Assembly: GCA_964035545.1 (NCBI GenBank)
Contig: OZ037767.1
Coordinates: forward strand, 8,876,581 to 8,940,580
Source: Bugula neritina
Lineage: Eukaryota > Animalia > Bryozoa
Direction of reading: 5' to 3'
Length of the DNA: 64,000 nucleotides
Below, one piece after another: positions 3,417 through 61,548 of the stretch. Under the pieces are notes generated by a model that saw only the letters and a program-made list of their open reading frames with translations, searched no databases and was not told where the DNA came from. Made by a program: the position numbers and the translations under genes. How positions within the stretch are numbered: the stretch's first letter is position 1; every line of letters begins with the position of its first letter.

Positions 3417-4607
3417 AAAAGAAACTGTTTTGAATAACAATATCTTTACTCAGCTCTGACAAGCTACCTGTACACATCAAACATAATTATTATTATGCTC
3501 AAATATAAATATTCAGTCATAAACAATGTATATAAATGATCAATGATAATTACTGCCAGCTAACAATTAGTTTTTGGTTTATATATTCCATACATGCATA
3601 TCATATCATAGAACATCATGCATATGGTGCTGTAACACAATAATCGCATATATACATTTTAACAAAAATTATACATCACGAAATATTAAAGTGTCTTTGG
3701 GTAAAATACAAAGAATCTTATTGTTTGAGGCAACAATTGATATGCTCTTGTGCTACTGCAAGCTCCTGTTTTCTTGCTTTCCCACATGTGAGAAGATAAC
3801 CCTAAACTAATCATAAGAAGTACAGCATCTAATGGAGGGATAACTCTCAATAAGCAATGTACAAATATTTATAGTGTTTAATATAATAATATTATTATTA
3901 TATGAAAGCATCAATCATAACGCATTACAAATAATCTATACCAGGGGTGTCCAACCTTTTCAAAGCAAGGGCTATTAAAATTGAATCTTGAATGTTTCCA
4001 AATTACTTTATTCCAAATTATCATGACTCATTACACAATTAAATAAAGTTCCAATAGTTACTTCAGGCTGCATCTTTTTAGCATGTATATAAATTTAAAA
4101 CATTTAAAAGTGGCTTTTCAACTCTAATTCACATATGTGTGCAATTAATAGTTTTATTTGTTTTGCCTACATAAATGTATAGGCTAGGAGCCTCATCCAG
4201 CTCTGGAGCTGCCTGTTGCATAGACAACCCTGATTTCTACTAACAGACCGAGTAAGTTTGCTTACATTCACGGGCTTTCCATGTACCGATCTCAAATCGA
4301 TCTCGCTAAGATCGATCTGAGAAATGTGCTCAGATCGATCGTTTTTCCATGAGAGTGTCAGATCGATCTCGCGAAGTTGCCTCCTCTTAAGTGAAGGATA
4401 CTTTAAAAGTATAATTTGTTCACCTATTTGAGTGATTAAAGCTACTACTGTTGAAAACAAGATGGTCTTAGTCTAAAATTCAATCCCAGCTATAAAGTGT
4501 ACGTAGCAAAGCTTTCAGTGTATGGTAATTTGGCCAATTTAAAATAATTAATTTTAATTTTTTAGCTTGACAGCTTATATAAAATTAATGGCTGTCTTGC
4601 AGAGTAT

Positions 4608-4913
4608 TGTGGTGGTTCGTGGAACTACCAGCAGCACAACATGTAGGGTCGCGTAATTGACCCGGAACAATGGATAGCCAATTAGCGTAGTTGATAGTTA
4701 GCAGCAATTGTAGTTTCCCGCTGCTAACTCAGTCGAAGCTAGAGTGTGAAATAGATTAGATGTGTAACTTGTTGGAAATAATGTATCGTGTTTTTATAAT
4801 GTATAGTTGTGTATAAAATATACTCGTTCACTCGACTTAGCCTGGTGCAGTTCTATACTAGATAAATAGACTCTCTGGATAGCATATCAACCCTAAATCT
4901 GAAAATCTTAACA
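4608..4913 (+). repeat. 5' LTR (306 bp)
   Basis: Starts TGTGG and ends TAACA. Identical to 11788-12093 except G4901 vs A12081. Inr-like TCAGTC at ~4729 and TATAAAA at 4812. Confidence 0.98.
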
Positions 4914-4914
4914 G

Positions 4915-4932
4915 TGGTGGCAGCGGTGGGAT
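4915..4932 (+). promoter_or_regulatory. Primer-binding site complementary to tRNA-Leu 3' end
   Basis: TGGTGGCAGCGGTGGGAT lies 1 nt after the LTR and is the reverse complement of the conserved metazoan tRNA-Leu 3' end ATCCCACCGCTGCCA-CCA. Confidence 0.9.
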
Positions 4933-4944
4933 AGTGCATCCAAG

Positions 4945-5904
4945 ATGGAGACTGAAAATGCTGAAACTCAACCACCGGCAATCGAAGGTGAGCGTAGAGA
5001 CAATGCTATAGAGACAATGCCTGTTAACCATGTAGTAGAAGAGCGAAGGGTTCCGCGAGAACTAGCTGAAGACCGCTACAGGTTAAAGGCGCCCACCTTC
5101 ACGGGTGAAGAGGAGGTGGAACAATTTATCCAAGAGTTTAGCGACGTAATGGACGTCGCTCAGTGGCCCCCTAGGGTGGCCCTGCTGAAGCTTAGAATGG
5201 CATTGATGGACAAAGCCAAGCCCTATGGGCTGGGCATAGACATTGATAATATCTTTGCTTCTCTGCGGGCCCGCTTTGGCCTCTCGGCTACAGATGCCAG
5301 GGCCCGATTACAGAGGTTGCGGCGTGATCCCCGCACCCCGCTGCGGGAGCATGCCGCCGCGGTCATGAAGCTGGCACAGATCGCGTACAGCGACTTGCCC
5401 CCAGTCAATCGCGAGAGGTACACCCTCGACGCTTTCATAGCATCTGTCGACGATCTGGGTCTCCACCACCAGTTTCTAGCTAGGGGAGTCACCACCGTTG
5501 AAGATGCTCTGACTGAGGGGGAAGCTTACCTCCTAGCTAACCAAATGCATAAAAGTCGCGGAAGCTCCCGCCAAGTGGAGATAGACCGCGCAGACACGGC
5601 CGCGGGACAAGGGGAGGAAACCCCCGCCGCGGCTGCCGTGTCCCAGTTAGCGACGGCATCAAAAGTCACTCAACTGACGGACATGCTAGCCAAGCTGATA
5701 GCAACACTGACACCACAAAACCCAGTGAGTACCGCCCCTGAGCCCATGCGGCCATCGGCGCCGCCACAGGGAGAAACAGTCAGTTTTTGCTGGGAGTGCG
5801 GAAATCAAGGACATTTCCGCCGATATTGTCCCTTCCTAAATCAGGGGTTAAACTACCGCGGCCCGCAGATGTTCCCACCTTCCGCGGGCCGACGAAACCT
5901 CTAG
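4945..5904 (+). CDS. gag: Gag (capsid + CCHC zinc knuckle), 319 aa, intact
   Basis: ATG in AAGATGG context just after the PBS; CWECGNQGHFRRYC knuckle. Confidence 0.93.
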   Translation: METENAETQPPAIEGERRDNAIETMPVNHVVEERRVPRELAEDRYRLKAPTFTGEEEVEQFIQEFSDVMDVAQWPPRVALLKLRMALMDKAKPYGLGIDIDNIFASLRARFGLSATDARARLQRLRRDPRTPLREHAAAVMKLAQIAYSDLPPVNRERYTLDAFIASVDDLGLHHQFLARGVTTVEDALTEGEAYLLANQMHKSRGSSRQVEIDRADTAAGQGEETPAAAAVSQLATASKVTQLTDMLAKLIATLTPQNPVSTAPEPMRPSAPPQGETVSFCWECGNQGHFRRYCPFLNQGLNYRGPQMFPPSAGRRNL

Positions 5905-7145
5905 GGAAGAAGAAACGCAGGTCACCCAGACGGGTACCGCGTACTGGCAACCAACAGTGGCAACAGCCACGACGGACCAGCAAGGGGCTTCGCCCCGCGG
6001 CTGCCTTTTCTATGCCCCTTCACAACAGATTCACAGGGCTACAAGTCCAAGAACCTGGATGGGAGCACACAAAGGTAGCTGAGAATCTAGCCTCGGCACC
6101 CCCGAGGCCTACCTATCACCGCCCCAAGAGACCTCCTTCGCGACCCAAAGCGAGGGAGGTACTCCCTGCGAGAGTAAGGCCTGAAGGGAGAGTTCAGGTG
6201 CAGCCCCATGGGAACAGCTATTTCTTGCCCGGTAAACTGGAAGGCAAAGCTGTTACTTTTCTCATTGATTCGGGCTGTACCACAAACCTCTTAAGCCGCC
6301 AACTCTTCGACACCCTCAGTGCTAGGGTCAGGGGCGAGATGGAAGCATACGAAGGGGAATACGGCACCCTAGCTGACGGGTCGTGCCTTCCCTTCTATGG
6401 TATAATTGAGCTGACGGGACGAGTCCGCGATCAAACGATCCAAGAGACGTTCATCGTCAGTCAGCTCAAGGAGGATGCTATCCTCGGGATGCCGTTCCTT
6501 AAACGGCACGGATGTCACATAGATTTTAGCAGATCTGCAATGATGATGTCCGGGCGGGAACTCGCCTGCGTCGACAAGTTCGGCTGCCCTTTAGTGGGAG
6601 GTGTGCAAGTGGTACGCAACCGTACCATACCAGGCCGCTCCCGGGCTACCATTCACTGCAGGGTGAATGGTAGCCGGATCTCTGGACTCGGGGTGGTTGA
6701 AGGCGCGCACGAAAAGATCCAACTTGCCAGCAGTCTGAATCAGCTGACTGAGCAAGGGGAGATCTTAGTGCAGTGCGTCAACCCCTTTACCGAGCCTATC
6801 AAGCTCCCGGCTGGGTCGATGCTGGGCCGTTTTCACTCTGTTCAAGAGGGAGACGTAGGCCCGTCGCTGGGTGATGCGACAGAGGCACTCCCTCGACACC
6901 CTATTCAGGGACGAGGGGCAGTCCCAACACATCTCCGGGAGTTATACGAGACGGCCAGTAACGGCTGCGCGAGTAACAGAGAGCGCCAGGCTATGGCCAA
7001 GTTACTACGCGACTACGGTGATGTGTTCAGCAGCGGAGAGCATGACGTGGGACTGACTGGAATTGTCAGACACGAAAGGGGCAGGGACAGTCCCTGTCCG
7101 GCAGCCCACACGCAGGCTGGGGCCGGAGAAAGAGAAGGAGGTTAG
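5787..7145 (+). CDS. pol: Pol N-terminal part: aspartic protease and PR-RT linker
   Basis: FLIDSGC catalytic motif and ILGMPFL motif. Protein similarity ends at VRHE (7076), where the frame breaks. Confidence 0.9.
   Translation: MLGVRKSRTFPPILSLPKSGVKLPRPADVPTFRGPTKPLGKKKRRSPRRVPRTGNQQWQQPRRTSKGLRPAAAFSMPLHNRFTGLQVQEPGWEHTKVAENLASAPPRPTYHRPKRPPSRPKAREVLPARVRPEGRVQVQPHGNSYFLPGKLEGKAVTFLIDSGCTTNLLSRQLFDTLSARVRGEMEAYEGEYGTLADGSCLPFYGIIELTGRVRDQTIQETFIVSQLKEDAILGMPFLKRHGCHIDFSRSAMMMSGRELACVDKFGCPLVGGVQVVRNRTIPGRSRATIHCRVNGSRISGLGVVEGAHEKIQLASSLNQLTEQGEILVQCVNPFTEPIKLPAGSMLGRFHSVQEGDVGPSLGDATEALPRHPIQGRGAVPTHLRELYETASNGCASNRERQAMAKLLRDYGDVFSSGEHDVGLTGIVRHERGRDSPCPAAHTQAGAGEREGG
5847..5908 (+). 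promoter_or_regulatory. Predicted -1 programmed ribosomal frameshift (gag to pol)
   Basis: Heptamer G TTA AAC in the gag frame (5847-5853), 5-nt spacer, 8-bp stem CGGCCCGC (5859-5866) / GCGGGCCG (5884-5891). The protease ORF is in the -1 frame. Confidence 0.75.
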
Positions 7146-10100
7146 CCGACAAGTACGGGATCTTCTGGACCGGGGACTGATAGAGCCCGCCCATAGTGCG
7201 TGGAGCTCGCCAGTCGTACTGGTCCGGAAGAAAGACGGCAGTTGGCGGTTCTGTGTGGACTACCGCAAACTCAATAGCGTAACCATACAGGACGCCTACC
7301 CTCTACCTCGTATTGACGAGTCATTGGACGCCCTAGCCGGCAGCAAGTACTTCAGTACGTTAGACTTGCTAAGCGGCTATTGGCAGGTTCCTCTGAGTCC
7401 CGACGCCCAAGAGAAAGCGGCGTTTATCACACGGGACGGTTTGTGGAAGTGGAAGGTGCTGCCCTCCGGGTTAACCTCCGCCCCAGCCACCTTCCAGAGG
7501 CTGATGGAACAAGTCCTTAGCGGACTCCATTGGAAGACACTGCTGGTCTACCTCGATGATGTCATCGTAATCTCTCCAGACTTCGAGACACATGTCAGTC
7601 GTCTGCAGGAGGTTTTCGAGAGACTCCGAGGTGCCGGTCTTAAGCTCAAACCTTCCAAGTGCGCTCTGTTGCAGCCGGAGGTCAAGTACCTGGGGCACGT
7701 TGTCGGTCGAAACGGCGTGGCAACGGATCCCGAAAAGGTACGGGCAGTAGAAGACTGGGTCACCCCCCAAGACTTGACCGGACTCCGGGCTTTCTTGGGG
7801 CTGGTAGGGTATTACAGGCAATACATACCAGACTTTGCGGGCATAGCCCAGCCGTTAAACCGGCTTACCGCAAAGGGAGTGACGTGGCAGTGGACCCCAA
7901 TCGAACAAGAAGCGTTCGACCGCCTCAAGGGCTGCCTCCTAACGGCGCCCATCTTGGCCTACCCAGACCCCACTCTGGAGTACATCCTAGACACGGACGC
8001 CAGTGACCAGAATGTTGGCGCTGTGCTGTCACAAGTGCAGGAAGGCCGAGAAGTAGTAGTAGCCTACTACAGCAAGTCTCTCTCTCCCGCTGAACGAAAT
8101 TACTGCACTACCCGCAAGGAACTGCTGGCAGTAATCAAGTCAGTGAAGCACTTCAGACCATACCTATATGGCAGGAAGTTCCGGCTGCGTACGGATCATG
8201 CCTCGCTGATCTGGTTGTGCAGGAGAGCAGAGCCCTCTAGTCAGGTCGCCCGGTGGCTCGAAATCCTAGCTGAATTCTCATACCGGATCGAACATCGACC
8301 GGGCAAGAGACACAGCAATGCGGATGGGTTGAGTCGCCGACCTGACGGAGGTTGCAAACAGTGTCTCAACATCGAGAGGAGGGACGGAGGTCCCCCACGA
8401 TGCGAGTTGGAGACGCTGGCTCATCACGGAGCACCGTTTGACTGGGATCAAGGTCAACTCAGGCAAAGAGTTGACGAGCCCCCGGAGGATGTGCAAAACC
8501 TCCGCGCCAACCCTGTACTGGCCGGTAATGTTCGAGAGCTGAAGAAGCTCCAAGAAGAGCTGCCTGGAGTCGTGGCAGACATATACCGGGCCAAACGGGA
8601 AGGGCGACGACCCAGCGAGGAACGCATAAGACAGGGATGCGCCGAGTTCCGGCTATACTGTCAGCGTTGGGACTCGCTGCGGATCGGGCAGGATGGGTTA
8701 CTAACCATCTCTCTAGCTGCCAGCGGCAGACACCCGGAAAGGAAGAGGGTAGTCTGCCCCACAGCCATCCGCCGTGAGTTGATTTGGGACACTCACAAGC
8801 AGGTCCACGCAGGGGTCAAGCGAGTGATGTCCAAATTACGACTCCGGTGGTATTGGCCGCAGATGGAGCGTGACGTCCGGCTCAGAGTCAAACAGTGTGA
8901 GATCTGCCAGGCCAGTAAGCATAGCCGCCCCCCTGGTGAAGCAGGACGGCGGAGGCTATATGCTGGCAGGCCCTGGCAAGTAGTCGCTGTAGACCTGGTC
9001 GGACCCATGCCCCTGACCCCCAGAGGCAATAATTGGATCCTAGTACTAACCGACCACTTTACTAGGTGGGCGGATGCTCTGGCTATCCCAGATGCATCAG
9101 CCCCAACAGTGGCCAGGGCACTAGACCAACATGTATTCTGTTATTTTGGGCTCCCCGAACAGATACACTCTGATCAAGGCGCTCAATTCCAGTCTCAACT
9201 GATGAGCGACCTTTGCCACCTCTGGGGAGTAAATCAGAGCAGGACCACCCCCTACCACCCTCAAGGTAACGGGGTGGTGGAGCGCAACAACCGGATGCTA
9301 GGTGATGCACTCCGGAGTCTCCTCCTTGGACGAGGTCAAGAGGAATGGGATACGGTGTTGCCGCAAGTCATGCGTGCATACCGTAGCACCCCACACACCA
9401 GTACTGGTGAGACCCCAAACCTCTTGATGCTCGGGAGGGAGACTCGTGTCCCTGACCATCTCACCTATCACGTTCCAGAGCAGGATAACTCAGTCCATGA
9501 GTATGCCAGTGAACTAGTGGAACGGATGAAGGCCGCACACGAGATACTGCGTCAACAGCAGTGGAAGGTGCGGCACGAAGATTCCGATGAACCACCCCTC
9601 TATCAAAGAGGAGATAAGGTGTGGATGGTCAATTACCGTAGGCGCCGCGGACAGGCTGATAAGCTGAAGCCTAAGTTCGTAGGCCCCTACGTGGTCGTCG
9701 AGGCTATGCCCAATCATACGTACAAGATTGAGCGCTCAGGACAGGTGTCTATCCAGAATGAGTCTCGCTTGAAACCATATTGGGCTAGCCCCGGCGGAGT
9801 GGGAGAAGCCCCCCCGTTGTTAGAGCCCAGGAGGCAGACAACAACGCGCGGGCGACGGCGGCATGGACCTGAATACGAAGTGGTCATACCGCGGGAAGAA
9901 AACTTGGTGAGAGAGGAGCGGCAGCTTTTGTCAACAGAAGCGTGTCCGCCACCGCCAAGTCTAATTCCATCACTTCCAGAAGCCGAGCCGGTTCCGGAAG
10001 TGCAAACCCCCACGGAGGGAGGGGCTCCATCCGGAGAACAAGAAGAGGTGACCGGGGACGGTGAAGTAGAGACGCCATTAGAGGCCCCTACTAACGAACC

Positions 10101-10179
10101 GGCAAGCGTGTCACCCCCCCCTAGAAAGGGGTCAGCGTACGAGGCAACCCCCCGCATACTTGAAAGACTTCGTATGTGA
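7063..10179 (+). CDS. pol: Pol: reverse transcriptase, RNase H, integrase
   Basis: WRFCVDYRKLN, YLDD, TDAS, HHCC zinc domain, D-D-E (VDLVGP, HSDQG, VERNNR), GPY motif. Out of frame with the protease. The true C-terminus appears to continue in the +1 frame to 10408. Confidence 0.95.
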   Translation: MSDTKGAGTVPVRQPTRRLGPEKEKEVSRQVRDLLDRGLIEPAHSAWSSPVVLVRKKDGSWRFCVDYRKLNSVTIQDAYPLPRIDESLDALAGSKYFSTLDLLSGYWQVPLSPDAQEKAAFITRDGLWKWKVLPSGLTSAPATFQRLMEQVLSGLHWKTLLVYLDDVIVISPDFETHVSRLQEVFERLRGAGLKLKPSKCALLQPEVKYLGHVVGRNGVATDPEKVRAVEDWVTPQDLTGLRAFLGLVGYYRQYIPDFAGIAQPLNRLTAKGVTWQWTPIEQEAFDRLKGCLLTAPILAYPDPTLEYILDTDASDQNVGAVLSQVQEGREVVVAYYSKSLSPAERNYCTTRKELLAVIKSVKHFRPYLYGRKFRLRTDHASLIWLCRRAEPSSQVARWLEILAEFSYRIEHRPGKRHSNADGLSRRPDGGCKQCLNIERRDGGPPRCELETLAHHGAPFDWDQGQLRQRVDEPPEDVQNLRANPVLAGNVRELKKLQEELPGVVADIYRAKREGRRPSEERIRQGCAEFRLYCQRWDSLRIGQDGLLTISLAASGRHPERKRVVCPTAIRRELIWDTHKQVHAGVKRVMSKLRLRWYWPQMERDVRLRVKQCEICQASKHSRPPGEAGRRRLYAGRPWQVVAVDLVGPMPLTPRGNNWILVLTDHFTRWADALAIPDASAPTVARALDQHVFCYFGLPEQIHSDQGAQFQSQLMSDLCHLWGVNQSRTTPYHPQGNGVVERNNRMLGDALRSLLLGRGQEEWDTVLPQVMRAYRSTPHTSTGETPNLLMLGRETRVPDHLTYHVPEQDNSVHEYASELVERMKAAHEILRQQQWKVRHEDSDEPPLYQRGDKVWMVNYRRRRGQADKLKPKFVGPYVVVEAMPNHTYKIERSGQVSIQNESRLKPYWASPGGVGEAPPLLEPRRQTTTRGRRRHGPEYEVVIPREENLVREERQLLSTEACPPPPSLIPSLPEAEPVPEVQTPTEGGAPSGEQEEVTGDGEVETPLEAPTNEPASVSPPPRKGSAYEATPRILERLRM

Positions 10180-10687
10180 CTGCGTTAAAAGCGGCACACA
10201 TGAAAGTCTAGGGGAAAACCGTACGAGAAAAGAATCGAGCAAATGTGGGAGTTGTCAACACCACGGAAATATCAACTTTTGTATCGGCGGAAATAGAAAC
10301 AAAATTCATCCGCCGGGTGCACAAAGTCTTAATCACGCACCCCAACCACGTTGCTCGATCTTTTCATACGCTGATGCAGTCAAGAGTAGACGTGTTTCTA
10401 AGCAGTAGTTCAAACCATTTCACATATTCAGTATGTCTTACGACAACAGATCGTGGGGTGAGTTAACTATATCTTAATACGAAACTAGATTGCATCGCTC
10501 AGCTCTGACTCACTGAGTCAATCGAGCTGGAGATAGGTTAGTGAAATACCGTAGTAAGAACTCAGTTTGACTTAGAGATTTTTATAATCTCATTGCAATA
10601 CGGTTCTATCTGACTATTCACTATCATTAATCTCTACGAGGTAACTGAATTAGGAGTTGCCAAGCTGTTCAAGCTGACAACACAGCA

Positions 10688-11509
10688 GTGTACTGTACTA
10701 ACACTGTTGAAACTTTTTCAGATTACACTCGACCCGCCACAACCAGGGTACGGGATAGAACACTTCCCGCTCCGTATCCGGAGGACTATGCTAGTGGTGA
10801 CCGGCCTGAGCCACTACGCCGCCGTTGGCGGTGGGTGTCTCCACAAACCGAAGAAGAAATAGAAACAGCCTGGGGGTCCAGAGGACGGACGAGATGCCAG
10901 ATCTGTGGTGAAGATTGCGCCTCTCACCGCTCCCTTAAACTACACGTCAATGCTCATCTCCTACTGACCTTCTGCCCCTGTGGGTACAATGATGTGTATC
11001 CCTACCCCGTCACCAGACACAGAGCGGCGGGCTGTTTCCCTGGAGAAAACTATGTGGTCGACGCTAAGCTGTACCCGGAGTTCCTCACGTATATACGACC
11101 TCTGGTAAAGAAGGCCATGCTATTAGCCGTTCTATCCTCGGGGTTCCAACGTGTGTTAGACAACGCCCGCCAACAATCCCCGCTGGTGTCTGACCGCCCT
11201 CCAATTACATACACCCCCGAGGAAACTACATATCCAGAAGAAGGAGAGATCTCCCCTACCCCGGCGAAGAGACGGACCAGGTCCCCCAGTCCACCCTTAC
11301 GCCGCAGACGAACACCGTCCCCAGACCCAGTACGACTAGCTACAGTAGAAGAACGCCTCCTACGATTACAAGAAGAGTTCACCCAGCTGGCGCCAGATCT
11401 ACTTAACACTACCACAGGACTCTTCCAGCTGAAGGGATCCGTATGCCGTATGAAACGGAAACTGCGTACATGCCAAGCCAAGCACCGGCGTGCCCAACAA
11501 GGACTCTAG
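10688..11509 (+). CDS. Retrotransposon ORF3: zinc-finger / basic SR-rich / coiled-coil accessory protein, probably expressed by splicing (exon starts at 10722)
   Basis: Open 273-codon frame with C-x2-C-x12-H-x3-H and C-x-C-x12-H-x4-C motifs (10895-11035), KRRTRSPSPPLRRRRTPSP, and a heptad-rich C-terminus. TACTAAC at 10696-10702 and TTTTTCAG acceptor ending at 10721. Confidence 0.8.
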   Translation: MYCTNTVETFSDYTRPATTRVRDRTLPAPYPEDYASGDRPEPLRRRWRWVSPQTEEEIETAWGSRGRTRCQICGEDCASHRSLKLHVNAHLLLTFCPCGYNDVYPYPVTRHRAAGCFPGENYVVDAKLYPEFLTYIRPLVKKAMLLAVLSSGFQRVLDNARQQSPLVSDRPPITYTPEETTYPEEGEISPTPAKRRTRSPSPPLRRRRTPSPDPVRLATVEERLLRLQEEFTQLAPDLLNTTTGLFQLKGSVCRMKRKLRTCQAKHRRAQQGL

Positions 11510-11776
11510 TATGCTACCCAGAATACTCCACATTTGGTGAGGAACCAAAATCGTGCAAATGCTTAACTGCTAGACAGGTTATTCCTTGTCTAATACCACA
11601 GCTAGCTAGTATTCCTCGTCTATCTACAGCTGGCCAATTGTATGCAACGGATCGTTATAACGACTCTGTCTATTATTATGTCTCTTCCTGTATATTATGT
11701 ATTATTTTTGTCCACTGATGTATGCAATTACTATTGAATGTTTTTTTTATATATATCAGAAAGATAGCTTTCTGCT

Positions 11777-11787
11777 GGTGGGGGCGG
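11777..11787 (+). promoter_or_regulatory. Polypurine tract
   Basis: GGTGGGGGCGG immediately before the 3' LTR. Confidence 0.75.
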
Positions 11788-12093
11788 TGTGGTGGTTCGT
11801 GGAACTACCAGCAGCACAACATGTAGGGTCGCGTAATTGACCCGGAACAATGGATAGCCAATTAGCGTAGTTGATAGTTAGCAGCAATTGTAGTTTCCCG
11901 CTGCTAACTCAGTCGAAGCTAGAGTGTGAAATAGATTAGATGTGTAACTTGTTGGAAATAATGTATCGTGTTTTTATAATGTATAGTTGTGTATAAAATA
12001 TACTCGTTCACTCGACTTAGCCTGGTGCAGTTCTATACTAGATAAATAGACTCTCTGGATAGCATATCAACCCTAAATCTAAAAATCTTAACA
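11788..12093 (+). repeat. 3' LTR (306 bp)
   Basis: 305/306 identical to the 5' LTR; followed by the GTAT TSD. Confidence 0.98.
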
Positions 12094-12823
12094 GTATTAA
12101 TAAACTTACAGGACTGTTAAGCTTAAAATTACAAAAAGATAGCTAATGAAACTAAGTTTTATTAGTCATTTAAATTCAATTTAAATTCTCCCATTTTTTT
12201 TACCTTCTACTGCATATAATTTAGTTTTCTTAATCATTGTATTGAAAGTCAAAGTTTTGGCATCTGAAAAGTTGGCCATCATAATTATTTAATACTTTGC
12301 TTAGTAATTATGAATAAGTTATCATTTTCATTAGCAGACGACATTGTAGCTCGCAGTCTTTTTCTACTTCTCAGATCGATCTGGCGTCTTTCCATGGTCT
12401 TATTGACATGAGATCGATCTGAGTTCGAGCTCTACAGACCGACCAGCTCGGATCGACCGAGATCGATCTTTGGCGTCTTTCCATGGATCGATCTCACTGA
12501 GATCGATCTGAGATCGGTCCATGGAAAGCCGGTGATTAACTGTAGTTAAAGGTACACAGGTCACGCCCTTTAAACATAAAGTCTTTAGTAGATCAAAGTA
12601 AAAGCTGTAAGGATTACAGATTTGTGTAAAGCTGTAACTATCATTACTGCTAATTCCCATTCTGGCAAGGCTAATATATACATAACAGAGCAAAGCTCCC
12701 TCACCTATTGAATCAGGTTTTAGACTTATAAAACACTTTATTACACAACTAGCAGATTAGAGTGATTTATTATAATAAAATATAAATTGAAATAATTTAT
12801 TATAAAATGGTATTTATGGGAAA

Positions 12824-15053: not shown

Positions 15054-18000
15054 ATGGTACTGGCTACCACACCTGTTTTAATTGCAATAGTGTTAGTGTT
15101 GCTGGGGTACTTGTTTCTCAAATGGCTAAAGGTATGTAGCCCAAATGTAACAAAATTTCACCAAAACATGAGTATTTGGCTTTACATAATTTTATAACGA
15201 ACTCGAGTACAAAATTCTGCATAGAAATGGAAGTTGATATTTATTATTCTTTGCAAGCTGTATATTGAAAAGCTTGTGCTATTAATGCATAGGTACCCTT
15301 TCATTTTTGTATTAAGTGAGGGCTGCTACGTTTTAGCAAATTTTGTAGTGTAATAAATGTTTCAAACAGAAATTACAGCAACAAAAAACATATTTTTAGC
15401 ATTTCATGGGTATCACTTTCCTGTTAAATAAAGTATATATGTAACATACACCTTCTCATATATTTTTGACGTTGCTTTCCAATAGTTTCAGTGTTTAAAT
15501 AAAGACTACCAACTGTTGAGATGCTATACATTATATTTCAAACAAATAACATTAACAGTTTTAATAATCAGTGTATATAAGTAATAGCTGATGTTACAAT
15601 TTTCAGGATCCACTGAGAAAGATACCTGGTCCAAGAGGGTTACCATTCATAGGTAACACATTATCTGTTGATCCAACAAGACTTCATATGATATTATATG
15701 ACTGGGCAGAGAAATATGGAGATATTATGAAGATTTCACTATTCAACACACCTATGGTGGTTGTTAACTCAACTGAACTGGCCTATGATGTTTTAGTGAA
15801 AACTGGTAAATATTATTACTTTTATGATGTGTTGTCATAACCAAATGCAACCTGCATTTGACAGAACGTTCTTTTTTCATAAAAACACATATTCTCACAA
15901 ATGTGTACCCAAAACAACGAAACTACAGTTAACTTGTTGAAACTCAAGGAACTCTACCTTGATTGCAACCATAACACATATTCATCTATGTTTATGTTGT
16001 TTGGAATCCCGAAGCCCCTGTGGTGTAATGGTTTAGCGTGCCTGCTTGCAAGCCAGAGGTCTGTGGTTCGGATCCCAGTGGGGGCAATTATTTTACAAGC
16101 TATTTCGGCCTTGTTTGGGAAAGTACTCTCAGAAGTTAAGTGGCGAGTAGAGCCCATAAACTGACAGAATACATGGGGGCCAACGCAGTTCCAGAGAGAA
16201 CTGGGTGGGATGTTGTTTGGAATCTTGAAGCCCCTGTGGTGTAATGACTTAGTGTGCTTGCTTGCAAGTCGGAGATCTGTGGTTCGAATCCTAGTGGAGG
16301 ACAATTATTTTATAGTTTGACAATATTTAATTTTAATTGAATCAACATAATAATTCTTGCTACATTGTGTCAGTTTTGTAATGTGTTGTCAATGTGTTGC
16401 TTTATGTAATAATTTAACTGCAAATATGTGCCAGATGAATACAAGCATGAAAATGTTAGCTGCACAATGAATACCAAAGTAATGTTTAAAATTGCTGTAT
16501 TTAATAATTATATAGGAGTGCTCATCATTAAGTTCGTGAAATTTTTCCTTACTGTTTAATGAATGGATAATCAACGAATAAAATATTCTTTAGCGCTATA
16601 GTATAATACCAAACGTGTCAGTTGAAAGCAATAAAAGCACAACAATGGTTTCATAAGATTTATCAGATATAATTTTATGAGACTATATGAATTAGGTAAA
16701 AGTTTATGAGTTATAAAGGGTAAAAATATTGAATGCTGCCAAATTTAAATATCAAACTAAAAGCTAAGCTATACTACGTAGTAATAATATAAAAAAATTA
16801 ATTAATAAATAGTAATTAACTAATTAATTAATTAATAAAAATATATGAGTAAGTTATTGGTGAACATGAATTAGGTGACGTACACTTAAGCAGAAATAAA
16901 TATTTTGCACTCAAGAATATGGATGTATAAAGTCTACTGTAGTTCTGTTTTTATAGCCATACATATGCAGATCTATACATAATTATATTTAATAAAGTAT
17001 CTCTGGCAGAGGTTGTAGTGTGTTGAGAATTTAGTGCACTGCTAAATGTGCTTGGGTACTTTTTTACTTTAATGTATAGCTGACTTTTTTCAAGTTTCCA
17101 TGCCTGTTTGCATAGAATAGCTATAGAGTTCTTTTGATAATGTGTTGGAAACTGGCTGGATGTTTATTATGTCTGTCTTAATATCTTAAAATCTGTCTTT
17201 GTAAAGCCAATAATATGTTTTGAATCTGCTAGAGGTGTGAAGTTCAGTTTAATTGGCATAGAACTGCTGTTGCCTTGTACATTAGGTCTGTTGGGCAGAG
17301 TCTATTGCTTTTACCAGCTGCAGCCTTTTACAATTCAACTTTTCACTTTTTTTGTTTCTTTTATCTTATTTATAAATTTAACAAAATCATGACTTATTTT
17401 AGGCACAGACTTTCAAGGAAGACCATTAGCTGCTAGGACAGAGAGGGTGATGGGTAAAGACCTGGCTTTCAGAGTAATTCTTTATAGTGTTGAGATTACT
17501 CAGTGGTACCTGCAGTTTAATGGTTAGCGTGCCTGCTTGCAATCCAGAGGTCTGCGGTTCAAATCTCAGACTGGGCAATTATTTTATAGTTTTAGAAGGT
17601 ATAATGAGTAGTCTATTAGGTTGAGTATTAATTTATTGCTAGAGAAACCAGTTTTGGTCAATTAAAGAATATGCTGAGACATTAAAACTGTCGAAGAATC
17701 TAGCTTATAGAAGAGAATGTATATAAATGTTTATGTCTTTTTAAATTACATGTACCAAGGTCCGATATATATACCTTATTCTATAAGTCTGCTAATCACT
17801 GCATCAACAGTATATTTTGGAAACTTATTTTGTAACAGCTAAGTGAACTCTTGAACAAATTTTTTTAGTCGATTGATGATCCTGGATATCAGCAAAGAAG
17901 ACACTACACCATTAAAGCAATCAAAGGGTATGGAGAAGAAGTGACTCACCTCGAGGATATAATACAAAGCATTACAATCACACTGATTGATGACATCACA

Positions 18001-23610: not shown

Positions 23611-24136
23611 ATCGGGTATGCTAAAATAATATTTAATATTACTTAGACAGTAACTTAGAGTTAGATAAGTTTAAGTTATAATTAATAATTATCTATTAAT
23701 AGATATTCACTTATCAATATTTATATTGGTATACAATAGCAGAATGACTATAAAAATAATATTAGTTTTACTCTAGATATGCGTTTCTAACTAATAACTA
23801 TAAGCTAAATTAAATAAAAAAACTCAAAGCGTTAATTTTAAAGTAAAAGTTAAACCAAACGCATTACCATCTGTCACCATGAGTTCATCATCATCATGTC
23901 ATCATGATCATTAATTTCACATTGACATTCATTCATTCGAAATCAATCACAATCACAATGAGTATAAAAATTACTATCAGTGTCACAATCACAATGGTTC
24001 ATCAAGTTCAACTGGAAGGGACCATCATGATCATCATCATGCATAATGCCTAAGGCTAATGGTGAAGTGATCACGATAATGAATGATCAATAACTATATG
24101 AATAACCATAATGAAAATCATAATGATAATTTATTT

Positions 24137-24860
24137 AGGTGTTACACCGCAATCACTATCAGTTTGCGGGTTCAACATACTCATATCAAATAAAATACTA
24201 AGTGCTAGAGGACAAATAGGTGTGATTAACCGAGCGCTCTACTTGCCCCTTCCCCACGAACGAGCTCGATTGATTACATACAAAGCTTTGTGTGTACCAC
24301 ACCTTGAGTATGCTAGCGCAGCTTGTGACCCAACCTGCAAGAAAGATATTTCTGGCTTAGAAAAGATACAAATGGATGCAGTGTGATTCATAGCCAATAT
24401 TAAAGGCCGCAAAGATTTCGAAAGTTCTATGAAAAAACTCTGCCTGCATCCCTTGAACAAAAAAAGAGAACCAGACATATTAATCTTCTTATGAAGATTC
24501 TGGCCAAAGAAAAACAACATCTGACTCTCAGCTCTGCCTATGATGATCTGCTGAACAAACCAATAATCAGCATTATACACTCTCCCATGCGATGGGAAAG
24601 TTCGGATCAGTGGGCGCTAACAGTACCAAGTACCTGAACAGTTTTCTCCCAAGGACTATCTGGGATCTGAAAATTGGTCACAATTAAAGCAATAATGCAG
24701 AGATCTCGACATAGACAGGATTAAGTTCCTGTTCAGTGAATACAGCCCAATCAGTACTAACTGTATGACTATTGACCAATGACTTTCCAACATACTACCT
24801 ATATGCAGTACACCCCTTCCTTCCTCTAGGGCGGTCCAGTATGATGATCACTTTGTGTAA
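24137..24860 (+). mobile_element. 5'-truncated, decayed non-LTR retrotransposon (CR1/L2-like ORF2 C-terminus plus 3' tail)
   Basis: YKALCVPHLEYASAACDP...LEKIQ and NSFLPRTI motifs typical of LINE RT C-termini; stops and frameshifts present. Confidence 0.8.
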
Positions 24861-26288: not shown

Positions 26289-38502
<12,214 letters not shown>

Positions 38503-42559: not shown

Positions 42560-45500
42560 TAGTCTGGCAGAACTGGGGGTTAGGTTCGCAATCTCGGATA
42601 AAGTTTTTTTCTCTCTTGATTATTTATCTTGAGGGTCCAGGTAAATGTTTCCAGGTGGGTGTGGACCCACCACCCTTGAGCATTTCGAGAAATCCAAGAT
42701 GGCCGCCAATTATGGAAAAATCGTCATCTAATAGGCATAAAGTCTATATTATGTTGCAAAAACAAAAGTATTTTGATGATTCAAATAGATGTGCATTTTT
42801 GGAATGAATATGTGCCATGCCAGTGCAAAATTAATCAAAGTTAAGAGCCAAGAGACATGTTGTTCAGCTCAAAAATTGGAATTGCTTCAATAAAACATCA
42901 CATATAGTGCAAAGAAATGATACAAGGTTTTTAAGTAATTGTTTGGACAGATATATTGCTTATTAACAGTGAATAGAAAGTGAAAAAGAGATACAGAGGC
43001 ATATTGCTCAGCTAAAGTTAAAATGGAACATATATATATATAACCATACAGATGTGACAAACTTTAGCTCATGTTCATATTAAACACCTTTCTCATTTTT
43101 TTCTATCATTAGAATTTGTTAGAAATGTTAGTTCATAGCAGCACACTCCTGTTACTGCTTCACAAGGGCAGAACTCTGTGCATGGGATAGATGTACTAAA
43201 ATAGCCATATCTCCTTGTTTTGCATGATTGTTGGCTTCCACAGGAGCATTTAATGAATTTGGGCCATTTTACTTTATTTAGCATGCATCAGCAGATTATG
43301 ATCAAAAATTTTAAAGTTTGCTCAAAATTCATGAAAACTTACTATATAGAGTAATAGAATTTGCTAATTATAACTATGCATAGCAAAAAAACTGGGAAGA
43401 GGTCTTGCAACATTTAAGCGCGGCGTCATGTCATACGAGCTAAATATATATTTGTGAACCATCACGGTCTATATAATATCTCAATGTACTAATAAATTAG
43501 GAAAAAAACATAGAAAATCATGCATAATTGGAAAAGCCTTAATTACTCAGTTTATTTGTTAAAATTTTAATAGTTTGAGGCAAAAATCTATATACAATAG
43601 CAGCTAAATTGTAAAAAATCGCCAAAAACTAGAATCATTGAGTGTACACCAAATTAAGTAAAATGATCTACTTCATAATACTGTCTGGTGTAAGCACAAC
43701 ATCATTTCCGACTCTTTTTGGGAAAAGAGATTCTATTAGATCCCTAATTTTCACCTACCAATGTTCTAGTAGGTTTAATGCCGCAGTTTCATATGGCTTC
43801 TGGAAGTGTGCTCTGGTGACATTGTCCAATAGCTTTATCTGTAGGAGGCAAAGTACATAAGTTAAAGGCACATCGCAAATAGCATTGCTGACCTTGGTTT
43901 TCTAAGCTTTTTGTCTTGTAGATGTCATGGAAGAGCACTTTGCATAAGGGTAGCAACATAGCATAAACCTGGTAGCTTGTATGAATAGTCATCCTGAAAA
44001 GAAGCCCTAGTGTCACCAAATTACACTTTCTTCTACCAAGACATTTAGTATGACTCCCTTTCCAATATTTCAAATTGTCCATTATAGGGATTTGTCTCAA
44101 ACTTTCTCACCTAGTGTGCTGTGGTCTAGGATGGGTGGCGATTTTGCAGGGCACCAAGTGCTATCAGAGAGTGTCATCTGATTCTGTCGTCAAAATCTTT
44201 ATCTGAAAGGCCACATTTCAGTATTTCATCCTTCATTAGATCCATTAACCTTTTCTTTAGCCTCCCTCTCTTTCTCTGTATCTTCATCTCAGCCACCATT
44301 ATAATATCTTTTTCCTATCCCTTCTGCGCACATGTCCATACCATTGAAGAGGTTTCCTCCTCATGCCTATTGCGATGGTTTTTATTTTGGCCTCCTCTCT
44401 TATATTATCACATGTTACATGGTCTTCCCACTCTAAATTGTAAATGTGTCGAAGCATCCTCATCTCAGTTGCACTTATCTTGTCTTCTTGTCTTTGAGTC
44501 AGTGGCCATGTCTGATATCCATACATCAGTGTAGTTTTTATTGCCATCTTGGATAACAGAACCTCCAGCTTGGTGGAAGTTTTCTTATCTTCTTGTCGCG
44601 GACTGTTCTGAAAACTCAATTTTCACGGATTTTTTTAAAATTGACTTGATCTTAGTTTTTCTTATTTTCCCTGTTTCCTTGAATGTAAAAGGTGGCAATG
44701 CTGCAAGTTTATGAGCCATTAAAGAGTCCGCATCCAAATTCTTGGTCTGCTTGAGTAAAATGGTTCGGGCATATATGACTTCAGTATCATACACAGTGGT
44801 ATTAAAAACCTTAATATGCCTTTGAGATGATACCATTGTCTTCACTTAAGATATACAAGGATTTATTTAACCCCTTCGACTAATTCACTTTAAATTCTTG
44901 TATAGATGCTTTACCTATAACAAAAATATTGTCAATAATAATTGCTGAATAACTGATGACTTTCTCAGCTGTTTCAATATTGACAAGAGCAGCTGGGTGG
45001 CATTCTTCTTTGAGTAGGACATTGCAGAGTTCAATCTTCCTTTTGACAAACCTTCTGTTCCTTGAATCAGATTAGATTCTTGATTGCATCTCTTCCTTAT
45101 GAGTAGTGGAAGCATTTATTTCAGACTCATCTCTGATGTCACTGAGGCCTTACTGTATCTTGTTGCATGCAGAATTGCTATACACCCACACCTTGACAAT
45201 TTCAGTTTTATTGGTGATGCCAATGGTTCCCCCTTGCTGTGGCCAAATCTCACGAAGGTCACCTCAATGGTCATGTTTGACCAGATGCCGTTGAGCTGGC
45301 CGAGTTTATGATGCATTGTGTGGTTACCAGCCACGAATTCAATCCTTACATCTTGTGGCATGATCTACATGCTATACAGATATAAATACGTTTCCTCTTC
45401 CATTGCTAGATGTAAGGCCCAGTCTCCTTCTCTATCAGCTATGATGTGGGTGTTGATAGTAAAAATTGGTCTAATAAAGCACATGACCCACAGTTTTGCT

Positions 45501-48467: not shown

Positions 48468-51400
48468 TTACGAAACCTTTGCCCAGGGCAAGTGAGGATG
48501 GTTCTCGACTTTTTCCCTAAAAAAATATCAAGCTAATAGTTAACAAACTTGCATGACATAGTAAAAAATTGTAGATATTTGAAGAATTTCACCTAATTCA
48601 CCAAGAGCTCATTTTTCTGACAATTTTCTTACTATGCAAGTTACACTCTCAGCAACAAATTATTAAGCTGGACTCAGTAGATGAAAATATTATGTTGAAA
48701 TTAAATCATTGTTCTGTAAAACTAACTGCTTGTTCCAGTGATCACTAGTATTTCTCAGAAAATAGAAAGAATGAACCAGCGAATCAGAGTAGACTGCTTA
48801 CTAACAGTTTCAGTGACACTAGTATAACATAGGTTTGGACCTCAGTATAACAACCAAATGAAATTTAGCTGCATGCTGAAAGGAAGAAACAATATTAACT
48901 GCATATTTATGACATATTTAGATTTCTAACTTTCAACCAACTTCATAATGACAATGTGACTGGTAAGTGCATAGAAAAAGTAGAAAAAAACTCACCCTCG
49001 GAAAAATGATGCAAATGTGAATAGCCTCTCTTCTCTGTTAATTGATTTAATCTCTTCCATTTCTGCATCACTCAGCTCAAAGTCAAACAACTAAACAAAA
49101 CACAAAATACTTGTCAACAACTGTATACACTCTCACTACAGCACAGCTAAATATTGAATTATTACTGCATTCTATGGTGAATATACATGCCATAGTCCTT
49201 TACTTCGTAAATGTTAGTAGAGACCAGTCTGTTTGTCTTCATAACATTTTTAGACTGCATGCACTGCCCAGTTCCAGTTATAGGTAAAAAATGTGCTACT
49301 TATAAAGTAATGTTTTTTGCACTTTCTGTATGTCTAACTTGTAGAATAAAATAAAATTTTATATTATCTATATTGTCAAACATAATCATGATACATAATC
49401 ATCCATAACTATAATAGCATAAGTCACAGAGTGGTAACTTGGTTCAAGGAGAGAGGGACTTCAGTTTTACACTACATATAGTACGGAGTATTGAAAACCC
49501 TCCCTTATAACGTATCACCTCACCTGAAGATTTGATATAATTCTATCTCTGTTTACACTCTTTGGGAGAACTATAATATTTCTCTGTATCAGATACTTCA
49601 TCAGAATCTGAGCTGGTGTTTTCTTTAACTTCTCAGCCAACTTCACAACTACTGGATCTTCAAGCAGCACATCACTAGTTTTAGAGCCTCTGCAACAAAG
49701 TATAGGAATTCAACTGTAAAATAAAGCTAGGGTCACCTGGAGTGAAAATTAGTGTGCAAAACCTTGTGCGAGAGTTACCTGTCAAATGCATAAATAGTTG
49801 CCAGTTAAAGCTAAACTCAAATGACCCAGTGTATTTGTCAATAACTTTACTATTCTTTTATAAATTATTCCGTTTTGAGATTTCACTAGTTATTCTCAAT
49901 TGAGAGGAAAAAATTGAAAAATTAGGCTCTTTAAGAAGCAATCAGCCAATTAGATCAATTTTGATTTCAGGAAATTCACAGAAAACAGCTTTTCGTTCAA
50001 TTGTGTCAATTGTTCCAAATTCGTCTGATGTGGCCCTAAGTTATCGAAAATGCTGGAGACTCAAAATACAGAGTTTTTAGAGATTTTCTAATTTTCAAGA
50101 AGTAATAATCACAATTTCTCCTGCTATTGGTGTAATGTTGATTAGCATGCTACTTTCACTACCACAACTAGCTTTACAGCTTACACACTCTTCAGGTACC
50201 CAGTGTTCACTATGAACAGTAGAATTCACTATGATACATGGCAGTAAGCCAAATAAGACAGATCTTTTTGTGAAAGTGTGTAAGTGTGTGTGAGAGAAAT
50301 AAAAAGAGATTCTTTACTCACACACATGTAGAATGGATAAGGTATTATTTGAATTACCTGATGGCAGCAGAACCTGGCGATCCTATTGGTCCGTATGCTG
50401 AAAGAGTCATTCCCTTTGACTGACAAAACTCTGCCAGTTCATGCTGAGGGAACCAGGCATGACACTCTACCTGTAAACCAACAACTCTATATTTTATGCT
50501 ACAGGATCAGTTATACAGGTTTCTCTTACCCTATTCAGTGTACTGACAGCAGTTGATTATGGTGACTGTATCAATTACCTGATTATTCGTAGGTTTGATC
50601 CTGGCAGCGTCCCAAACTCTCTTTACCTGCTCAATGTTGAAGTTTGATACGCCAAGAGCTTTCACTAAACCAGCATCTACTAACTTTTCCATCTCCTGAA
50701 CAAATAGCAGTTCCATATTAACACAGGCAGTGTTCATGAAAATATTTATACTATATTGTAATAAAAGATATATTACATTCATCACATTTAAAAAATAACG
50801 TGGGCTTGCTCTGTTATACAGTCACGGTCCAATATCCAACATAATACTTTTTTTCCAAAATGTGACTGCATATTGTCGAAACAAAATGGCATTGACACTC
50901 AATTTTTTGACGCAATGTCTAATGTTTCGTCAAAGTGTCCCCGAGCTTTATTCTCTGACTATATCAGGTTTACTGTTTCAATTAGAATTATAACCATCAA
51001 CACCATTTTGTCAACCTTTGTATTTGTTTGGTAGTTTGAAGAGTGGTTGTGATAAGAGAAGTAAGTAAGATTCAATCAACAACCTCCGCTAAGTCACTTA
51101 GGAGTAGTTTATTAAAGCCTTATCAGTCAACCATAGCTATATTATACTGTTTAAACAGTTTTAATATTTGAAACTGGTTTCCAAATTATGTCCCAGTCTT
51201 ATCAGTTATGATACTTTAGTTTTTCTCAACCGATTTAAGCAGCTAGAGTAATGAGGGCTCAAGTAGATAACATTATATCAACTGCACTGCATTTGTTTTA
51301 AAACAGAGCGTTTACAAAACTTTCAAATGATTAGCTGAAACATGCAAACCTGGTCACTGCCTATTAAGTCATCACAAAAGAAAAATTTCCAAGAGTGACT

Positions 51401-57115: not shown

Positions 57116-61548
<4,433 letters not shown>

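Follow-up and report, generated by a model that had tools for sequence, protein, structure and literature searches.

Standard diagrams of LTR retrotransposons show gag and pol and add no gene beyond env. A complete Ty3/Gypsy element of Bugula neritina carries, between pol and its 3′ LTR, a third open frame (ORF3) that an initial interpretation made from the letters alone, the sequence-only reading, had taken to be a non-Env gene for a protein with zinc fingers and a coiled coil. The question raised by this locus is whether ORF3 is a gene and, if it is, what its product might do for the element. The element occupies 4608–12093 of the window (the whole 64,000-nt stretch of DNA analysed), and its parts are on the forward strand. 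It is flanked by a 4-bp target-site duplication (4604–4607, repeated at 12094–12097) and bounded by two 306-nt LTRs with TG...CA ends (4608–4913 and 11788–12093) that share all but a single position. The primer-binding site (PBS, 4915–4932) resembles the 3′ end of what we take to be tRNA-Leu, and the polypurine tract (PPT) is at 11777–11787. The gag gene (4945–5904) includes a CCHC knuckle motif, with a Pfam zf-CCHC match below the cut-off (E 0.15), and is overlapped in a different frame by the aspartyl protease frame (5742–7145, identified by Pfam). The reverse transcriptase, the RNase H and the integrase (pol, 7057–10179, also identified by Pfam) follow in the Ty3/Gypsy order. The TG...CA LTRs, target-site duplication, PBS, PPT and PR-RT-RH-IN order all identify the carrier as a Ty3/Gypsy element, and this element is young. 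Here pol is interrupted where protease gives way to reverse transcriptase (7040–7145, with a frame change near 7080), and near 10114 it is out of frame relative to some sibling contigs, although the LTRs differ by only 1 base. This copy may have been moved in trans.

An intact third frame had been reported between pol and the PPT and 3′ LTR, and an open frame is indeed located there, extending from 10649 to a stop codon at 11507–11509 (286 codons), while the alternative frames across 10724–11506 contain 9 and 10 stops. The start that had been assigned to it, at 10688, did not hold. That codon is GTG, and the first in-frame ATG (11117) lies downstream of both fingers, so ORF3 as drawn is not translatable from its own start. 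Initiation at GTG 10688 was rejected because the reading frame 5′ of the splice acceptor predicted below is not preserved among relatives. The ORF3 coding exon most likely begins at 10722 and continues to 11509 (261 codons and the stop).

A predicted branch point, pyrimidine run and AG acceptor (10696–10721, junction 10721|10722) immediately precede this exon. The TACTAAC at 10696 is perfect, and its A is 20 nt before the AG at 10720–10721, which is the first YAG downstream and forms a phase 1 acceptor. TACTAAC occurs 14 times on the forward strand of the window, and simple arithmetic gives a chance of about 0.7% for an occurrence in a 30-nt slot. The predicted donor (4988–4993) is the best-scoring GT of the element under a simple consensus score, located 43 nt after the gag ATG and also in phase 1, and the predicted first coding exon (4945–4987) would supply the gag ATG, the first 14 codons and one base. 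Joining the two would produce a 276-residue protein. A weaker candidate is a micro-exon at 10433–10463 (ATG 10433, phase-1 donor 10458, in frame with ORF3) that would give 270 residues; a loose end in two contigs from DNA run X2 suggests that some copies may lack the G of the donor at 10458, a weak hint against it. G+C content is 38% in 10458–10721 compared with 56% in ORF3. In 18 of 20 regex rows of relatives the junction is preceded by Ser or Leu, residues that a YAG acceptor allows, and the translation upstream of the junction changes frame between sub-lineages, which fits the end of an intron. RNA run X1, which is too shallow for this purpose (20 short contigs, share 0.18), contained no gag-ORF3 joint and a single 219-nt ORF3 contig that is possibly DNA. 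Joints listed in X2 were set aside because unidentified letters separate the parts. From these signals, ORF3 is likely to be expressed from a spliced gag-ORF3 mRNA.

Selection was assessed among sibling copies in X2, where contigs span the whole element and include many diverged copies (5990 contigs). Sites within 10380–11530 were scored as varying if they differed in at least 15% of the X2 depth, and the count excludes two rows (one synonymous, one nonsynonymous) that appear in the RNA contig alone. In the ORF3 coding exon 19 sites vary, and 14 of these are synonymous where 5.95 are expected when identical substitution types are placed at random (p=1.8e-4), noting that the sites were picked by support, that the events are non-independent and that X2 may be the window's own source. 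The pol control, made up of 19 pol sites from the 40 rows listed, likewise has 14 synonymous sites. When the 19 ORF3 sites are read in the remaining two frames, the residue is kept at 5 and 2 of them. The single indel listed in the region is in its non-coding part, with none listed in ORF3. Where random disruption in sibling elements and a dN/dS near 1 would have spoken against the gene, a synonymous excess was found, and ORF3 is under purifying selection, like pol. It is almost certainly a functional gene.

The ORF3 product is composed of a core domain of 129 residues (10796–11182), which is conserved and predicted to fold compactly, followed by a linker and a long helix. Finger 1 (10895–10957) has the C2H2 motif first reported for it, C-x2-C-x12-H-x3-H, and includes the conserved Leu of the classical pattern; its zinc site is predicted from pattern and model. 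For finger 2 (10973–11035), a C2HC-type motif is present as described, but it is C-x-C-x12-H-x4-C, with a CxC spacing and a 5-residue linker from finger 1, and the pair does not constitute a classical Kruppel array. The Pfam C2H2 match in this ORF3 alone is below the cut-off (E 0.13), and support comes only at the family level, where Pfam zf-C2H2_4 is matched at E≤0.1 by 16 of 37 members. A basic/Ser-Pro tract (11267–11323) lies in the linker, which is predicted to be disordered, and the terminal helix (11336–11506), a predicted coiled coil, has the expected heptad pattern at 11336–11464 and a basic tail. A second copy of the ORF3 domain was not found in the window.

The C-terminal 207 residues of ORF3 match 74 clusters at 50% identity, 37 of them at E≤1e-10, and a profile search identified 104 proteins (90% identity level, the window's own included) among 7993 candidates scored. 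A search seeded with the most distant matches added just one generic zinc-finger protein, P0171, which is out of all counts. The relatives form a close group (47–88% identity) and several distant groups near 30%, and the named ones all belong to two bryozoans, Watersipora subatra and Bugula neritina. Many of the database relatives are truncated or frameshifted, and those missing the finger patterns include visibly decayed copies. Nevertheless, the zinc ligands are conserved down to about 25–30% identity. Among 106 proteins covering both fingers, finger 1 is kept in 79, finger 2 in 91 and both are whole in 71, with the 5-residue linker in 69 of those 71. Of 47 full-length tails, 45 carry the heptad pattern, by a test whose shuffled control is lenient because shuffling spreads the linker prolines. 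The basic tract, which had been read as an SR-rich and NLS-like feature, is present in this ORF3 but is not a family trait, being confined to this sub-lineage. A basic patch is in the linker of 1 of 44 close relatives, compared with the helix tail in 39 of the 44, and 30 of 32 distant relatives have one somewhere behind the domain. Assignment as an SR/RS-domain protein was rejected, as the alignment includes no conserved RS-dipeptide tract.

In the model of full ORF3, a confidently predicted domain is joined by a disordered linker to a helix of 59 residues. Modelled alone, the 129-residue core has a pLDDT of 95 and a pTM of 0.87, with the fingers embedded among five further helices. Neither the full nor the core model has a Foldseek match in PDB or BFVD at E≤0.001. 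The weak PDB matches obtained by Foldseek and by sequence are all to DNA-binding C2H2 fingers, those from Foldseek being single fingers, and no whole-domain match to DNA-bound finger arrays was found in the fold search (best E 0.54). In PDB the family profile matches the fingers of SALL3/SALL4 best, at E 6e-7 for two short stretches taken together. In the ESM Atlas the top three clusters for the core are unnamed (0.95–0.96) and are followed by generic C2H2 clusters, which serves as a lead only. Finger 1 of the family has Ser/Thr at −1, Arg at +2 (58/78) and +5 (61/78), Leu at +4 (76/78) and Leu/Val at the hydrophobic position +6 (66/78). The interfinger linker is hydrophobic, with TGEKP never among the commonest linkers, and the core has a positive net charge (median +3 and +5). 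A Kruppel tandem DNA-binding array was rejected on the basis of the 5-residue hydrophobic linker and position +6. The predicted packing of the fingers, the Arg residues at +2 and +5 and the hydrophobic +6 position point instead to a packed domain with a basic face.

The position occupied by ORF3 is that of env in errantiviruses, where Env is expressed from a spliced subgenomic mRNA. The sequence-only reading had excluded Env because ORF3 appeared to have neither signal peptide nor transmembrane anchor. This agrees with the maximum Kyte-Doolittle value over 19-residue windows, 1.24, which indicates that ORF3 has no membrane anchor, and a value above 1.6 is reached in just 4 of 106 relatives. 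Searches of Pfam, PDB and BFVD revealed no homologous fusion protein, whether F, gB or another. The product of ORF3 is not an Env protein. Bryozoan errantiviruses are described as having a gB-type Env and a gag-env-pol order, and the available part of that survey of env-carrying metazoan elements reports only gB-type Env in bryozoans and includes neither 'zinc finger' nor 'C2H2' (PMC13524379).

Complex retroviruses encode Rev/Rex/Rec and Tat/Tax/Tas, which are small, basic, oligomerising nuclear regulators made from spliced mRNAs. ORF3 has no sequence or fold match to regulators of the Rev/Rex/Tat type (BFVD best E 0.55), and its tail includes no clear leucine-rich export signal, with NES-like patterns found only inside the folded domain. 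Rev is also described in the available part of the paper on CERV, the product of a non-Env ORF located, like ORF3, after pol and before the 3′ LTR, of the Ty3/Gypsy element Cer1 of Caenorhabditis elegans (PMC10309623). In the portion of that source available, CERV is translated from a spliced gag-ORF3 mRNA that begins with gag-frame exons, has a Cys loop, a zipper and an NLS, and is required for export of the genomic RNA (PMC10309623). Such an mRNA is predicted for ORF3, and the two proteins share a Cys-rich putative zinc site, a zipper or coiled coil, a basic NLS candidate and Ser-Pro phosphorylation sites. However, by its description in the same portion, CERV is 517 aa long and combines a C4-type loop with H, M and G-protein-like domains, compared with about 276 aa, C2H2 and C2HC fingers and a C-terminal coiled coil for ORF3, and it is stated to have no obvious homology outside nematodes (PMC10309623). 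The domain make-up of CERV has no counterpart in the ORF3 model, which consists of a zinc-finger domain and one long helix and has no G-protein fold match. The function of CERV has been demonstrated, according to the available text (PMC10309623), whereas we infer that of ORF3.

Other elements have comparable genes. LTR retrotransposons of bdelloid rotifers have family-specific non-Env ORF3s in the env slot that are typically spliced, some with coiled coils, but these encode GDSL esterases, DEDDy exonucleases and transmembrane or coiled-coil proteins, and 'zinc finger' is absent from the part of the text available (PMC5408684). The extra ORFs of plant Tekay and Athila elements are conserved and have predicted NLSs, helices and disorder, but they are often 5′ or antisense, and the available sections report no C2H2 domain in them (PMC11728184). 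In a review of host-element coexistence, Env is the sole third ORF named in the part available (PMC13269885). The sequence-only reading had recognised no described family, and no described ORF was matched in Pfam, PDB, BFVD or the open literature, where no description of an ORF3 with C2H2 fingers and a coiled coil was found; Repbase, GyDB, Dfam, subscription journals and supplements may hold one. By these searches ORF3 belongs to an undescribed protein family in an already known kind of slot. The proposal of a 'complex' LTR retrotransposon stands for its non-Env third gene but was overstated as new, given the prior description of CERV in Cer1 (PMC10309623, in part).

Genomic context is available for few of the relatives. 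DNA loci were not returned from viral contigs (three alignments), metagenome contigs (ORF3 alignment and pol) or prokaryote genomes, and the context rests on four proteins. P0045 continues into sequence like the PPT and LTR start of the element described here (none of 200 shuffles scores as high, and it is the top-scoring tail of those tested). P0041 has a 56% match to the pol tail of this element in the same frame as its zinc domain, and in P0083 and P0115 a motif resembling the pol tail, assigned by a regex match, lies about 290–305 open codons upstream of the domain. These traces suggest that some distant members also sit in Gypsy elements, and in some relatives the domain may be fused to Pol. 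A weak search found no fusion of 969–2765 residues among 7982 candidates.

On analogy, the reading that we favour, tentatively and short of calling it probable, is that the ORF3 protein pairs with itself and acts in the nucleus to regulate the unspliced RNA of its element. If gag and ORF3 are spliced together, the genomic RNA holds a 5.7-kb intron and needs a route out of the nucleus. The spliced ORF3 mRNA would be made first, as for Cer1 CERV and Rev. Its protein would pair via the C-terminal coiled coil and bind the intron-containing genomic RNA with the basic face of the zinc domain, licensing export or survival of that RNA and so switching the element to Gag-Pol synthesis and packaging. 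Counted against this are the basic linker tract in only 1 of 44 close relatives, the lack of a clear export signal and the weak PDB matches to DNA-binding fingers, and the three relatives in frame with a pol tail point to another use. The same finger matches, with SALL3/SALL4 as the best for the profile, would suit a protein that binds LTR DNA of the element as a dimer, either a transactivator or an anti-silencer, for which foamy-virus Tas and VANDAL VANC are models. VANDAL is mentioned in the available part of PMC11728184. C2H2 fingers most often bind DNA, an Arg is conserved on helix 1 of a core with net positive charge, and pairing through a coiled coil would turn a short site into one twice as long. 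However, Leu/Val at +6, the hydrophobic linker, the predicted packing of the fingers into one globule and the absence of an array-like match in the fold search make such a factor possible but unlikely.

Packed fingers and conserved hydrophobic positions would also suit a protein-binding adaptor, blocking a host defence or chromatin complex without contacting the element's nucleic acid, and the host-like tandem relatives in bryozoans could be a mimicked or captured partner. No partner or fold match was found, and the conserved Arg suits nucleic acid better, leaving this adaptor improbable. We give equally little credence to an integrase-linked targeting or tethering module, similar to the chromodomain of chromoviruses, that is Pol-fused in some lineages and was split off here as a spliced gene. 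It would account for the open frames from pol-tail motif into domain in P0083 and P0115, the arrangement of P0041 and the fact that pol tail and ORF3 belong to the same frame class in the window; but six stops separate them there, the search for fusions was negative if weak, the motif in P0083 and P0115 is a regex match, and an overlapping separate ORF would look alike. The decay of many database relatives could suggest a neutral passenger, either a piece of host DNA picked up by the element or a frame that is open by chance. A synonymous excess equal to that of pol, which refutes this, together with the ligands kept at about 25–30% identity and the lack of listed ORF3 indels among siblings, makes a passenger extremely improbable.

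Three relatives, P0025/P0076, P0046 and P0057/P0078, carry the core domain twice in tandem and resemble host genes; two of the three are annotated in bryozoan genomes and are candidate domesticated or donor host genes. The bryozoan set includes XP_067940963/4 of W. subatra and KAF6040923 and KAF6037488 of B. neritina, uncharacterised proteins whose homology to the core domain is genuine. A terminal tail resembling a coiled coil, as in ORF3, is present in KAF6037488 and in the Watersipora protein, but, unlike ORF3, three proteins of this set, all unstudied gene models, hold the domain in the host-like tandem form. In a tree of 44 domains (thinned from 106) the tandem host-like copies group together (support 85/93); the tree is unrooted with an unresolved backbone and cannot give the direction of transfer between element and host. 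No match of the kind expected for a recent host-gene capture emerged. Given host-like tandem relatives in two bryozoans, ORF3 may have been captured from a host.

Cer1 is the one element turned up by these searches in which a regulator encoded in the env slot has been tested. A further, unrelated family in that slot, with pol-like selection and dozens of divergent lineages, would demonstrate that Gypsy elements evolved accessory regulators on repeated occasions. The ORF3 core is a small, well-predicted domain for testing export of intron-containing RNA or escape from silencing, and the family may exemplify an exchange of zinc fingers between elements and the genes of their hosts. A broader scenario, speculative and on balance doubtful, is that of a widespread, undescribed bryozoan lineage of 'complex' Gypsy elements with a spliced gag-ORF3 zinc-finger regulator, an independent invention of the Rev/CERV switch, whose domain would be Pol-fused in sister lineages, exchanged between elements and hosts and surviving as tandem-domain host genes.

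Both flanks of the element (4170–4472 and 12380–12520) contain similar short GATC-rich repeats that share the peptide 'SQIDLSEID' in reverse frames, and the insertion may therefore lie inside a copy of another repeat or between two of them. Two short frames (24102–24616 and 44302–44622) resemble by eye the reverse transcriptase tails of non-LTR retrotransposons, and a Pfam search of the two gave no match. Around the element, the window consists of AT-rich DNA of animal type with ordinary host-gene exons, including phosphofructokinase exons at 29624–35249 (Pfam PFK) and exon matches to an aldo-keto reductase at 50534–50821 (reverse strand) and a galactose-3-O-sulfotransferase at 57878–58234 (forward strand). 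A tandem array with a 17-bp unit is located at 1568–2315 (about 30 overlapping copies, 98%), and a 91-nt repeat present three times, at 15994–16300 and 17485–17575, appears by eye to be tRNA-derived and SINE-like.
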